Source: a phage. From it: a DNA stretch of 64,000 nt. The first letter of the stretch is position 1, and the number at the start of each line of letters is the position of its first letter. Positions 12,425 to 25,466 of this stretch are shown here, one piece after another. The stretch lies in the sequence record PZ256263.1. One strand, written 5' to 3'. The notes under the pieces were generated by a model. The model was not told the DNA's origin, did no database searches, and worked only from the letters and a program-made list of their open reading frames with translations. The position numbers were made by a program, and so were the translations under genes.

Positions 12425-14215
12425 ATGTCAAAGATCATTTTGGGAGACACAGGTTGTAAGGAATGTATCTCTCATGGTCGTGATAAAACCCACAACCACA
12501 TGATTCTCTTCCGTAACGAAGAGACTGGTGAGGAGTGGGGAAGTTGTAACCGTTGTGGGAATTACGAAGTGTTCGAAAAGGGCACTACACCCACTCCAAA
12601 CGAGAAGAAAGAGTTATCCCCTGAAGAATTGAGAGAAGTCTTAGATGATTGCTTAGAACTTCCTCAGGGTGAACTTACTCGACGTTTAATCCCTAAAGCT
12701 GTATCAGAGCGTTTTGAGTGTCGCATCGGCCTAAGTCAAACTGATGGTCAGACTCCAGACAGCTACTTCTTTCCTCGTGAACGTGATGGGAACATTGTTG
12801 GTTACGAGGTTAAGCTGCTAGATAGTAAGAAGTTTTATTATGTTGGCAGTGTGAAAGAAGCAGATTTATTTGGTATGGCACAGGCTCAACGTGGGGATGT
12901 GTACAACAAGAAGCTGTTCATTTTTGAAGACCCGCTATCTTGTATGTCTGGTTTCCATGTCCTTACAGCTTTTACAAATGCAACAAATATTAAGCCAGCA
13001 TGTGTTTCTTTACCGTTCGGTGCAGGTTCAATCTCTTCTGTGTTGTCTCGTAATCGAGACTTCGTAAATGGTTTTGAGGAGGTTGTGCTCTGCATGGACA
13101 ATGACGATGCAGGTGAGATAGCTTTAACAAAAGGTCGTTCTTTATTCCCTCATGTCAAGTTTGCTCGTATTCCTAAAGGAACTTTCCCATACAACGGTGT
13201 GGAGAAAGAGATTAAGGATGCGAATGACATGCTTCTGTCTGGTCGTGGTCAAGAGTTATTCAACATTCTCAAGTATTCAGCAAAGCGGGAATCTCCTGCT
13301 GGTGCTGTAACAATCTTTGATTGCCTTGATGATGCTCTGAAGAAAGCGGAGTGGGGTATTCCCTATCCGTGGAAGACTCTGAATGAGATGACCTTCGGTA
13401 TTCGGTGGGGAGAGGTGGTAGCCATCGGTGGTGGTGTAGGGAGTGGTAAAACACTCATTGCTCACGAGCTGGTTGCTCATCTGTGCTTAGAGCATGGTTT
13501 TAATGGAGGTGGCTTCTTCTTGGAAGAGAAGGTAGGCATGTCTGTTAAGAACATTGCTGGTAAGTCAGCATCAATTCCTTTCCACCGACCTGATGTTGAA
13601 TATGATGAGGAGGATTTGCGTAATGAAGCACTTCGTTATGCAGACAAATTCTTCTTGTATGACAACTTCGGACAGAACGAATGGGAAGACATTAAACAGT
13701 GTATCCGTTTCTGGGTAGTTGAAAACCAGTGTAAGTTCATCATCCTTGATAACATTACCGCTCTGGTATCTCATTTAACACCTTCAGAGATTAACACTGA
13801 AATCAGTAAGATTGCTTCAGAGCTTGCTGGTATGTGTAAAGAATTAGACTTTACCGCTTTCGTGTTGTCTCACCTTAATGCTCCGGCAGGTGGTGCTCCT
13901 CATGAAGAAGGTGGACAGGTACGTGAAGTACAGTTCACTGGCTCTCGTTCCCTTATGCGTTGGTGTCAGTGTATCATTGGCTTTGAGCGTGACAAGCAAG
14001 CTGATGGCTTAGCTAAGAACCTCTCAGTTATTCGATTACTGAAAGAACGTAACTACGGTCAGACAGGTGTCTGTTATACTAAGTATATCAGTGAAACCGG
14101 TAGACTTGTAGAAAGGGAAGACTTTGAAGTTGATGAAGATAATCCATTCGTTTTAACTAACGGAGAGGATGCAGCTTCTCTCGTCAACCAAGCAGATGGA
14201 GCTTCACCGTGGTAA
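12425..14215 (+). CDS. bifunctional DNA primase/helicase (T7 gp4-like)
   Basis: Track ORF 596 aa; N-terminal CxxC...CxxC zinc ribbon, TOPRIM-like LCMDNDDAG, Walker [10 protein letters not shown], Walker [11 protein letters not shown]. Confidence 0.85.
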
Positions 14216-14766
14216 AGAAAAAGAAGAAAGTGTTTGCATTCGATATCGAGAGTAATGCACTGTACGATGACATAACTAAAGTATGGTGTATTTATATCTT
14301 TGATGTTGAAACTGGTGAAAGGTGGGGCTATCGGCCTCACCAAATTGAAGATGGGATTCGTAAACTTACAGAAGCAGATGTACTAGTGGGTCATAATATT
14401 ATTGACTTCGACTTACCTGCTCTGAAAAAGATGTATCCCTCTTTGATTAAATATAATTTTAACGTCTTTGACACTTTATGTCTTAGTCGATATCTTAAAC
14501 CTGACCGTATTGGTGACAGTCCTGAGTATCCGAAAGGCGACCCTAGACGTGGCCCAAGAGGTCATGGTTTGAAGCAATGGGGTGAGTTCTTAGAGGAACT
14601 TAAAGGTGACTACGGTGAGCAAGAGGAAGCATGGGATGCTTTCACTGAAGATATGTTTACTTATTGTGAACAGGACGTTAACTTAACTGTCAAGGTTTAT
14701 CTTTTCTTGTGTGAACTCACGGGATTTGACCCTTACGACCCACCTTCATTATATTGGAAAATGTAA
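14209..14766 (+). CDS. 3'-5' proofreading exonuclease domain protein (family A DNA polymerase exo part, DEDDy type)
   Basis: Track ORF 185 aa; Exo I FDIES, Exo [14 protein letters not shown], Exo [12 protein letters not shown]. Confidence 0.75.
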
Positions 14767-14767
14767 A

Positions 14768-23182: not shown

Positions 23183-23605
23183 ATGCCATTACCAGCTAGA
23201 CATCAAAACCGTTTCCTAGTTCTCAAGTGGGATGATATCGAAATGAATCTCACTGAACACGAACTTGATTTGTTCCATGAACTACTGTCAGAGATTCGCT
23301 CTGGTATCCCTGATCGTCAGTATGTAGTTATCAGTGATAAGCACCCTCAAGAGTTTGAAGAAGCTTGGGGTATGAAGCTGGCTTATATTCAGAGAGCTAT
23401 TCGAGAAAGAGAAGAAGTCGCTAACCAAAGGGTTGTGGCTCATTTAGTACGAGAGCAACCTCGTGAAGCTAGGGCTAACCATGCACCACCCCCACCCCCT
23501 CCTTGGACAGTTGTCAACGGGACAGTTAGGGCTTACAGTGATGAAGCTACCATGTTAGATGTAGTAGAAGACAACCAAGCATTTACAGATTTACTTTACC
23601 AATAA
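23183..23605 (+). CDS. hypothetical protein with poly-Pro tract
   Basis: Track ORF 140 aa; HAPPPPPPWT. Confidence 0.5.
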   Translation: MPLPARHQNRFLVLKWDDIEMNLTEHELDLFHELLSEIRSGIPDRQYVVISDKHPQEFEEAWGMKLAYIQRAIREREEVANQRVVAHLVREQPREARANHAPPPPPPWTVVNGTVRAYSDEATMLDVVEDNQAFTDLLYQ

Positions 23606-23621
23606 TTTAAAGGAGTATAAA

Positions 23622-25466
23622 GTGAGCAACCCGGACGCTCTCCCATTTTTGACAGAGATGACTGTCGCTGATATAATCTCTAAGCAAGCAAAGCACGGAG
23701 TGAGTTTCAACCGAAGAAATGCTCGGTGGTATGTTCACCTCCTTAAAGAGATTATTGTTAATATTGACAAAGAACTGATTCCTCTCTTACCTAAGATGAG
23801 ATTAGATGGCTCAACTTATATGAAGCCGTTTAAGAAGTCTGGAGCTTTACAGAAGTGGCCTCAAGCCTATTGCGATAGAGTTGGCCTCAAGAGAGAAGAC
23901 ATTGGTGGAGCATTCACCTGTGTCGAGTACGTAGACTTTGACCCATCGAAAGATGCACGAGTTAAAGAAGCCCTTATGGATGAGGGTTTTCTTCCTCCAG
24001 AGTTTAACGTATCTAAAAAGCCTTGGAACACTTTCGAAATTAAGAAAGACATGCGAAAGTATGGAACATACCAAGCATGGTACACCGCTTGGATGCGAGG
24101 CAATGCTAAACAGAAACAGACAGCCGAGATGGTTGACGCTGATATTAAGAAGTTCTTAGAGAAACACTTTAGGTTCAAGACTAAGAACTACATGAAGGCT
24201 TATGTGTTTGGTTTGGGATTAAACCCTAACCGACGTAACCCTGTAACATTTGACGAGATTAAGAAAGCACTAGCTACCTCAAACAAGTGGCCTACAGCTC
24301 CTACAAACCTCGAGGAGACTCTTGAAGAAGGGTTAGGGGGTGAGCTAGGGAGTGTCGGAAGTTTGCTTAAGAGACGTGTTGTAGCGGCTCACAGGCTAGG
24401 TCTTATTAGTGGACTTATAGCAAAGGAGCGCGAAGATGGTAAACTTTCGGCAGAAGCTAACAGCTGCGCTACGCCGACTTTTCGATTCAAACATCGTATC
24501 GTGGTTAATATTCCCTCCCGTGGTTTGTTTGGTCATGAGTGTCGCAGTTTGTTTGAGTCTGACTATAACTCAGATGATGATCACTCTCGTCCTTTCGTTA
24601 TTACTAACGTTGTTCCTGATGGTTGTTATATACGAAAAGGTACTAACGTAATTTATGAAAAAGGTAAGCCGGGGAAGAAAGATAAGCCTGTAGGTGCTTA
24701 CAAATATTACATACCCGCTGGTAAAGAAGTATTCTTAGGGTATGATGGTTCTGGATTAGAGTTGCGTATGCTTGCACACTACCTCATTAAAGAGTGTAGA
24801 GATATGCTTGCTGAAGCAATAGAAGAAAACAATCCAGCTAAGAAAGCTCTGGCAGAACGTGGTTTAGCTTCTGCTATTATGTATCGTGATATTCTCCTTG
24901 AAGGTGATATCCACTCTCACAACCAGAAACTTGCTGGTCTTCCTACTCGTGACAACGCTAAGACATTTATCTACGCATTCAACTATGGTGCTGGTGATGC
25001 TAAGCTCGGTTCAATTGTAGGTGGTGGGGCTGACGAAGGTTCAGTGATGCGAGCACGTTTCTTGGCAGAGAACCCGTGTATTGCAATCCTCATTGATCGT
25101 ATGACAGAGAAAGCTGCTCAAGGATACTTGATTGGTGTTGATGGTCGTAAGATTACAATGAGACGGGATGCCACTGGTAAGGTTATGGTTCATAAAGCAC
25201 TTAACACCCTCCTGCAATGTGCTGGTGCTGTTGTTATGAAATATGCTATGATGTTCCTTAACAAGTGGATTGAGAGAGATGGGGTTCGTTGTGCTAAGGT
25301 AATTGATATGCACGATGAGGGCCAGTTCTCAGTGAACCGTAATGATGTACAGAAACTCAAAGAACACACCGAGCTTTGTGTTAAGAAGGCTGGTGAGTAT
25401 TTGAACATGGAATGTCCTCTGGCATCTGATTGTCAGATTGGACTTAACTGGATGCATACACACTAA
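23622..25466 (+). CDS. DNA polymerase, family A polymerase domain (T7 gp5-like), lacking the 3'-5' exonuclease motifs
   Basis: Track ORF 614 aa (GTG start, AGGAG upstream); motif A GYDGSGLELRMLAHY, motif B RDNAKTFIYAFNYGAGDAKLG, motif C HDEGQF, C-terminal GLNWMHTH. Confidence 0.9.
   Translation: MSNPDALPFLTEMTVADIISKQAKHGVSFNRRNARWYVHLLKEIIVNIDKELIPLLPKMRLDGSTYMKPFKKSGALQKWPQAYCDRVGLKREDIGGAFTCVEYVDFDPSKDARVKEALMDEGFLPPEFNVSKKPWNTFEIKKDMRKYGTYQAWYTAWMRGNAKQKQTAEMVDADIKKFLEKHFRFKTKNYMKAYVFGLGLNPNRRNPVTFDEIKKALATSNKWPTAPTNLEETLEEGLGGELGSVGSLLKRRVVAAHRLGLISGLIAKEREDGKLSAEANSCATPTFRFKHRIVVNIPSRGLFGHECRSLFESDYNSDDDHSRPFVITNVVPDGCYIRKGTNVIYEKGKPGKKDKPVGAYKYYIPAGKEVFLGYDGSGLELRMLAHYLIKECRDMLAEAIEENNPAKKALAERGLASAIMYRDILLEGDIHSHNQKLAGLPTRDNAKTFIYAFNYGAGDAKLGSIVGGGADEGSVMRARFLAENPCIAILIDRMTEKAAQGYLIGVDGRKITMRRDATGKVMVHKALNTLLQCAGAVVMKYAMMFLNKWIERDGVRCAKVIDMHDEGQFSVNRNDVQKLKEHTELCVKKAGEYLNMECPLASDCQIGLNWMHTH

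Follow-up and report, generated by a model that had tools for sequence, protein, structure and literature searches.

A split T7-type DNA polymerase with separate exonuclease and polymerase genes, and a phage thioredoxin encoded between them, in a phiEco32-like phage genome

T7-like DNA polymerases whose 3'-5' exonuclease and polymerase are encoded by separate genes have been described in several groups of phages. Every LUZ24-group phage was reported in 2012 to carry the polymerase and the 3'-exonuclease as separate genes (PMC3517423), a similar organisation in phiEco32 having been reported by Savalia et al. 2008, as cited in that paper, and in 2023 the split was described as common to all Kuravirus-like phages and to phages 7-11, Privateer, Vp_R1 and BUCT695 (PMC9965538). 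In RefSeq, phiEco32 gp74 is annotated as 'DNA polymerase exonuclease subunit; contains 3'-5' exonuclease domain' and gp53 as 'DNA polymerase; lacks 5'-3' and 3'-5' exonuclease domains', while the GenBank notes of Privateer use the Swiss-Prot names EXO74_BPE32 and DPOL_BPE32. The split is already known, from RefSeq annotation, the names of PHROGs families and at least three papers, and the idea of a role for thioredoxin was published in 2021. Here we describe the same arrangement in a stretch of phage DNA of 64,000 nucleotides (sequence record PZ256263.1, hereafter the window), in which a gene for an exonuclease subunit, a gene for a phage thioredoxin and a gene for a polymerase subunit lie in that order. 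We think it likely that this is a fissioned T7-type polymerase that reassembles as a heterodimer, and that the thioredoxin acts as a redox protein and not as a clamp.

A megablast search with window positions 12000-26000 returned 110 phage records, the best of which were Escherichia phages FS2B, SkaterBoy_Bas90, MN03 and SU10 (~96% identity), with phiEco32 at 94%. Because these relatives are phiEco32-like phages, the window was assigned to Kuravirus (Gordonclarkvirinae) as a phiEco32-like genome. The early and replication genes are on the + strand up to ~34 kb and the structural genes on the - strand beyond it; the three open reading frames (ORFs) under study are all on the + strand and coincide with phiEco32 genes (Table 1).

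The 185-residue ORF matched the Pfam family DNA_pol_A_exo1 (PF01612, E = 2e-8), and T7 gp5 was its sole match at E <= 1 in a sequence search of the PDB (1e-11). By BLASTP, its residues 12-181 aligned with T7 gp5 5-196 (E = 7e-18). A preliminary description of the window had assigned to this ORF the motifs Exo I, II and III of the DEDDy type and an end resembling the T7 junction between exonuclease and polymerase, and both were found in the alignment. Residues D12/E14, D68 and Y152/D156 correspond to T7 D5/E7, D65 and Y170/D174, with an Exo III motif of the form Y-x3-D, i.e. DEDDy; D12, E14, D68 and D156 show no variation among 38 stand-alone exonuclease homologues, and Y152 almost none. The C-terminus, GFDPYDPP, is conserved in the family as GFDxxNPP and aligns with the T7 interdomain linker HYFPPE, and the protein covers T7 gp5 residues 1 to ~198 with this linker motif included. 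Against PHROGs the best matches were phrog_38876 (4e-76) and phrog_403 (1.7e-38), both named 'DNA polymerase exonuclease subunit'.

The fold gave the same result. In a Foldseek search with the AlphaFold2 (AF2) model of the exonuclease, which had a mean predicted local distance difference test score (pLDDT) of 92.4, the top 27 matches were all T7 gp5 (best 4e-11), and stand-alone exonucleases of the TREX1/2 type appeared only at E >= 5e-5. T7 gp5 was the best match by sequence and by fold, and the closer relationship to DnaQ-like enzymes, which had been named as a possible outcome against the split, did not emerge. A DnaQ/epsilon-like identity (RNase_T, DEDDh) was considered separately and rejected, there being no such Pfam or PDB sequence match.

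The 614-residue ORF matched Pfam DNA_pol_A (PF00476) alone (5.5e-23), and phmmer against the PDB gave T7 gp5 as the best match (5e-33) and Klenow at 3e-6. It had been described as carrying polymerase motifs A, B and C without exonuclease motifs, which agrees with the alignment to T7: motif A D375 corresponds to T7 D475, motif B R443/K447/Y451 to R518/K522/Y526, and motif C D565/E566 to D654/E655. The tyrosine at motif B position B3, Y451, within RDNAKTFIYAFNYG, is invariant in 88 homologues. No exonuclease domain or motifs were detected in this ORF by Pfam or in the alignment, which begins at about T7 residue 199, so that a complete exonuclease domain is not kept in the larger protein; it covers T7 gp5 ~199-704. 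With the AF2 model (pLDDT 92.8), Foldseek again returned T7 gp5 as the best match (E = 2e-26), followed by the Bst, Taq and Klenow enzymes at ~1e-16. On its sequence the protein is placed in the T7-like family A polymerases (CDD cd08643; 'cluster 5' of PMC10201439), minus the fused exonuclease domain.

Compared with T7 gp5, the polymerase model also contains three confidently modelled insertions. The first is helical, ~70 residues long and located after the thumb (residues ~135-250), the second is rich in beta structure, ~45 residues long and immediately ahead of motif A (residues ~316-372), and the third, of ~25 residues, follows motif A (residues ~386-425).

When the two proteins were concatenated and compared with T7 gp5 by BLASTP, one high-scoring segment pair spanned the junction (12-330 with T7 5-373) and a second extended to T7 704. 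The multiple alignment put the break at T7 198/199, with the exonuclease ending at 198 and the polymerase starting at 199, and the phrog_17 profile was matched contiguously by the exonuclease (667-826) and the polymerase (836-1233). Given their E-values, these matches are not due to chance. Together the two ORFs make up a single T7-type polymerase whose interdomain linker has been broken, and the tiling of T7 gp5 that an alignment had been proposed to check was obtained, first 5-196 and then ~199-704. The spacing, which had been put at about 9 kb with about 20 genes, is 8,855 bp from the exonuclease stop to the polymerase start, with ~22 ORFs in the ORF list of the window (phiEco32: 20 annotated genes, 8.0 kb).

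An apparent split could be an artefact, such as an assembly error or a pseudogene, or could be repaired by a split intein, trans-splicing or a programmed frameshift. Nothing was found in favour of such an explanation, and it is hardly credible here. The two-ORF state is present in ~110 related phage records and in distant lineages, and ~20 intact conserved genes lie between the halves. The halves align to T7 end to end, and the BLASTP alignment to T7 contained no intein-sized extra sequence in either protein. No Rfam family, group I and group II introns included, reached threshold anywhere in the window.

The GTG start of the exonuclease overlaps the stop of the primase/helicase gene (GTGGTAA), because of which the exonuclease is probably translationally coupled to the primase/helicase. 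This coupling to a gene other than that of the polymerase, together with the 8.9 kb between exonuclease and polymerase, could mean that the 185-residue exonuclease acts alone, in host DNA degradation, in recombination or bound to the helicase, and that the polymerase replicates without proofreading. We regard this as improbable, however, as the fold of the exonuclease is specifically of the T7 gp5 type and not of the TREX type, the interdomain linker motif is still present at its end, and it co-occurs with an exonuclease-less polymerase wherever a locus reached far enough upstream. In addition, the exonuclease domain was reported to be necessary for the stability of family A polymerases (PMC10201439, discussion). 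In the S-SBP1-like polymerases, which were split independently, the products are predicted by AF2 to reassemble like the unsplit enzyme (PMC10201439). Most likely, the two window proteins would likewise come together, without a covalent bond, as a gp5-like heterodimer; its 614-residue subunit would synthesise DNA and its 185-residue DEDDy subunit would proofread in trans.

To see how far the split extends, homologues were searched in a collection of 5.8 billion proteins. The best ~116 polymerase homologues listed appear to be exonuclease-less, judged by their length and Pfam content. Most of them have 490-618 residues, with some shorter fragments that represent further-split genes; among them is the 'DNA polymerase part II' of LUZ24-like phages (39-42% identity). 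The 65 exonuclease homologues listed were nearly all of stand-alone size (~160-250 residues), with a few shorter fragments. In Kuravirus, Privateervirus, Libingvirus and Bruynoghevirus the gene order is the same, the exonuclease directly following the primase/helicase, often with overlapping stop and start codons, and the polymerase following after 2-9 kb of other genes. The gap measures 5.6 kb in Privateer (a Proteus phage), 6.2 kb in BUCT695 (an Aeromonas phage), 8.5 kb in the IMG/VR contig L005 and 1.9-2.0 kb in a Bruynoghevirus and the contig L007. In every examined locus that reached far enough upstream, the exonuclease was present beside the exonuclease-less polymerase. When viral contigs were scanned with the polymerase profile, most of the matches were marine T7-like phages, with the match limited to the C-terminal 250 residues, and only L005, L007 and L008 were members of the split clade.

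The identity to phiEco32 is 97.8% for the exonuclease and 99.2% for the polymerase, and 98-99% for all three proteins with the thioredoxin included, compared with 94% for the DNA of the region. This difference between protein and DNA identity indicates purifying selection on each of the three proteins.

The closest fused relative found, P0117, is encoded on a 45-kb contig. It shares 43% identity with the polymerase, across roughly two-thirds of its length, and 36% with the exonuclease. The fused gene follows its primase/helicase with one small ligase-like gene in between, and T7 gene 5 also lies just downstream of the primase/helicase gene. The simplest history we infer is a fission in the linker of a gene at this position, followed by the filling of the gap with genes. 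The ancestral polymerase gene would have been broken at about T7 residues 198-205, in the stretch that joins the 3'-5' exonuclease domain to the polymerase domain; its exonuclease part would have been kept directly behind the primase/helicase gene, and its polymerase part would have moved downstream while the gap filled up with nucleotide-metabolism genes and small genes.

The polymerase gene itself is broken again in some relatives. In BUCT695 (L003, 22705-25174) an endonuclease gene lies between polymerase residues 449 and 450, in the IMG/VR contig L008 (5540-8394) the polymerase is present as three pieces, and several metagenomic homologues of ~450 residues span just 72-74% of the polymerase. 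These further breaks are probably intron or homing-endonuclease insertions.

Between the exonuclease and polymerase genes, the preliminary description had noted a thioredoxin-like ORF with a CAPC motif, which was confirmed by Pfam (Table 1) and by a C12-A-P-C15 active site. Over residues 24-107 of E. coli TrxA the protein has 31% identity. The N-terminal ~20 residues of TrxA have no counterpart in it, and with 37-49 bits it stays under the NCBIfam equivalog cut-offs for TrxA/TrxC (97-138). The CxPC motif (C12/P14/C15) and the cis-proline P56 are invariant in homologues down to 49% identity. The invariance of CxPC and the cis-proline points to selection for redox chemistry; the cysteines of thioredoxin are reportedly dispensable for T7 processivity. 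The phage protein retains R53, I55, P56 and G73 (E. coli R73, I75, P76 and G92), and the position of E. coli TrxA G74 is a nearly invariant serine in the phage thioredoxins. In TrxA, the G74D mutation reportedly abolishes the growth of T7.

A thioredoxin acting as a processivity factor of a T7-like polymerase was proposed for Privateer in 2021 (PMC7881722); a literature search on Kuravirus and trxA found nothing. For the window, this proposal would mean a three-component holoenzyme of polymerase, exonuclease and thioredoxin subunits, encoded entirely by the phage and needing no host factor. The short thioredoxin would bind the polymerase at its half-length thumb insert and be its processivity factor, the part played by E. 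coli TrxA for T7 gp5, and the phage would be independent of host thioredoxin. The polymerase is of the T7 type and has an insert at the position of the thioredoxin-binding domain, the C-terminal half of the insert region being homologous to T7 (polymerase 72-134 with T7 293-362, BLASTP E = 6e-5). In 88 sequences the insert has the conserved residues P57, P69, F70, G74, G96, P97 and F98 as well as KPFKK. In agreement with the proposal are also the four TrxA residues retained in the thioredoxin and the location of its gene inside the replication module. Homologues of this thioredoxin are found in Kuravirus and in the Cronobacter, Salmonella and Proteus phage relatives; these are the phage groups of C3 morphotype (PMC7881722).

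However, the insert, which was modelled as compact and structured (pLDDT ~90), has ~42 residues compared with ~72 in T7, so it is ~30 residues shorter than the thioredoxin-binding domain there, and its length and conserved residues are unchanged in BUCT695 and Bruynoghevirus, in which no homologue of the window thioredoxin was found. An insert of at least 50 residues has been counted as a full thioredoxin-binding domain, which only ~29% of 'cluster 5' have (PMC10201439). The proposal also leaves the invariant CxPC motif to be reconciled with a T7 processivity that reportedly does not depend on the cysteines, and the nearly invariant serine at the G74 position with the reported effect of G74D. 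Structure predictions for other phages did not support binding between thioredoxin and polymerase. Syn5 encodes a redox-active thioredoxin that AlphaFold3 did not put onto the polymerase (10.1101/2025.10.05.680603). With S-SBP1-like polymerases, in which the domain is halved in a similar way, AF2 predicted no complex with host thioredoxin (PMC10201439). Finally, thioredoxin-like genes are paired with the ribonucleotide reductase genes NrdAB in relatives; in Privateer, T4-like NrdA/NrdB are encoded ~7 kb from its thioredoxin. Considering both sides, we find the phage-encoded holoenzyme unlikely, though less so than an exonuclease that works alone.

A further, metagenomic relative with the split-polymerase module was observed in a 53-kb Logan contig (SRR11522596; L088, 5822-8715), where NrdD, NrdG and the class I pair NrdB/NrdA are encoded. 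A 72-residue thioredoxin-like gene with a CxxC motif (CTNC) lies directly upstream of NrdB/NrdA and overlaps the NrdB start. This gene arrangement suggests that the pairing of a redoxin with a reductase is common in this phage lineage.

A redox role for the window thioredoxin, most plausibly for the host ribonucleotide reductase, is thus more likely than a role in processivity. The thioredoxin would most likely be a redox protein for deoxynucleotide supply, e.g. the reductant of the host class Ia ribonucleotide reductase. Two points weigh against the combined reading of a reassembling heterodimer with a redox thioredoxin. Firstly, Kuraviruses encode no ribonucleotide reductase of their own that would need a thioredoxin (also PMC7881722); the redox client would therefore be a host protein or an unknown one, which keeps the processivity idea alive. 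Secondly, a literature search found no biochemical study of any split polymerase of the phiEco32 or LUZ24 type.

The thumb insert could also have another partner. In T7, the C-terminal tail of gp4 docks on the thumb insert of the polymerase. The tail of the window primase/helicase is acidic with a terminal aromatic residue (...NQADGASPW), and the tails in the clade are mostly of this kind (...GASPW, ...KDKPF, ...SSKPF), compared with ...SNDTDF in T7 gp4. BUCT695 and Privateer end in Phe, as does T7 gp4, and Bruynoghevirus in Ile (...DDDTPI). By analogy, we speculate that the thumb insert, with its KPFKK-like basic patch, may serve as a dock for the helicase tail. If the phage-encoded holoenzyme were true, the insert and the acidic, aromatic-ended tail would reproduce the contacts of the T7 replisome with parts encoded wholly by the phage.

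The coordinates of the replication features are collected in Table 1. The primase/helicase is 99.8% identical to phiEco32 gp75. Homologues of the 5'-3' exonuclease are labelled 'exonuclease' in phiEco32-like, Privateer, BUCT695 and LUZ24-like loci (see also PMC9965538), and this gene is considered to be outside the fission because T7 also encodes it as a separate gene.

Table 1. Predicted replication features of the window and their positions.
Feature	Position	Strand	Remarks
Primase/helicase, T7 gp4-type, bifunctional	12425..14215	+	Pfam DnaB_C 1e-10, weak Toprim_2
Exonuclease subunit, DEDDy 3'-5', stand-alone	14209..14766	+	185 residues, phiEco32 gp74 homologue
Thioredoxin	18936..19211	+	91 residues, phiEco32 gp65 homologue, PF00085 2e-13
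Polymerase catalytic subunit, family A, exonuclease-less	23622..25466	+	614 residues, phiEco32 gp53 homologue
Thumb-tip insert of polymerase (residues ~56-97)	23787..23912	+	Position of T7 thioredoxin-binding domain
5'-3' exonuclease, T7 gene 6-like	32206..33033	+	Weak Pfam 5_3_exonuc_N 6.7e-6, below cut-off

Several other genes in the gap were observed. An HNH endonuclease gene at 17636-18130 (+; 164 residues, PF13392 7e-9, phrog_59 1e-46) has a small conserved ORF and a Dps-like gene as neighbours. It is absent from the equivalent position in phiEco32 and SkaterBoy, and its DNA occurs in just 3 of the ~110 related phage records, namely XT18, XT73 and ManiMatter_Bas94, so it looks like a sporadic insertion of a homing endonuclease within the gap. 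This extra gene accounts for the gap of 8.9 kb in the window compared with 8.0 kb in phiEco32. At 20499-20828 (+), a 109-residue protein is limited to a single domain of NAD-dependent DNA ligase, the N-terminal, NAD+-binding Ia domain (PF22745, 1.6e-34). In relatives it is labelled 'DNA ligase' despite having no adenylation or OB domain, and such a stand-alone Ia-domain protein might be a modulator of host LigA. Directly 3' of the exonuclease is a nucleotidyltransferase gene on the + strand, ending at 16081 (437 residues, phrog_12715, weak PolyA_pol head domain, E = 0.002). Its start is GTG 14711 in the mechanical ORF list, overlapping the exonuclease, and ATG 14768 in relatives.

An enzyme of the window type represents an ancient and stable T7-type polymerase that is naturally made of two subunits, in an E. 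coli phage that is easy to grow. It could reveal how a polymerase and a proofreading domain communicate without a covalent link, and what the half-length thumb insert binds.

Among known systems, phiEco32 gp74/gp53 (EXO74_BPE32, DPOL_BPE32) and the other Kuravirus-like phages have the same genes, order and neighbours as the window, with strain-level differences only. The LUZ24/PaP3/tf phages (Bruynoghevirus), with 'DNA polymerase part I/part II', have the same fission and order at the polymerase identity given above, but differ in their gap of ~2 kb, the lack of a phage thioredoxin homologue and a polymerase of 545 residues; in LUZ24 itself, the gene for the polymerase also contains an intron (PMC3517423). 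T7 gp5 with E. coli thioredoxin is the closest solved structure for both halves and shares the catalytic motifs, among them the motif B tyrosine, and the thumb-tip insert, and the T7 primase/helicase shares the acidic, aromatic-ended tail. In contrast to the window, T7 gp5 is a single polypeptide with a thioredoxin-binding domain of 76 residues, about twice the size of the window insert, and none of the three insertions.

Separate polypeptides that work as a complex are also found in split family B polymerases (T4-related gp43A/gp43B), Pol III alpha/epsilon and PolD DP1/DP2. These belong to unrelated families and are comparable to the window by functional analogy only (for the PolD comparison, see PMC10201439).

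The S-SBP1-like cyanophage polymerases (Czernecki et al. 2023, PMC10201439) also have exonuclease and polymerase in separate genes, broken in the same linker, and a thioredoxin-binding domain that is approximately halved. Their fission differs, as it is a recent +1 frameshift that has left adjacent, overlapping genes with close unsplit relatives in cyanophages, whereas the window genes are 8.9 kb apart. In S-SRP01 the break is at T7 ~189/190, and the bit score of the window polymerase is 92 with the S-SRP01 polymerase, compared with 286 with the fused P0117. Owing to the frameshift, the adjacent genes and the different lineage, we judge the S-SBP1-type and window-type fissions to be independent events, and the same linker would therefore have been broken at least twice in T7-like polymerases. 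PMC10201439 (2023) presents the fission of exonuclease and polymerase as the first in family A, its text mentioning neither phiEco32 nor LUZ24. The fission of the phiEco32/LUZ24 type, to which the window belongs, is a separate and older event that had been reported years before that paper.

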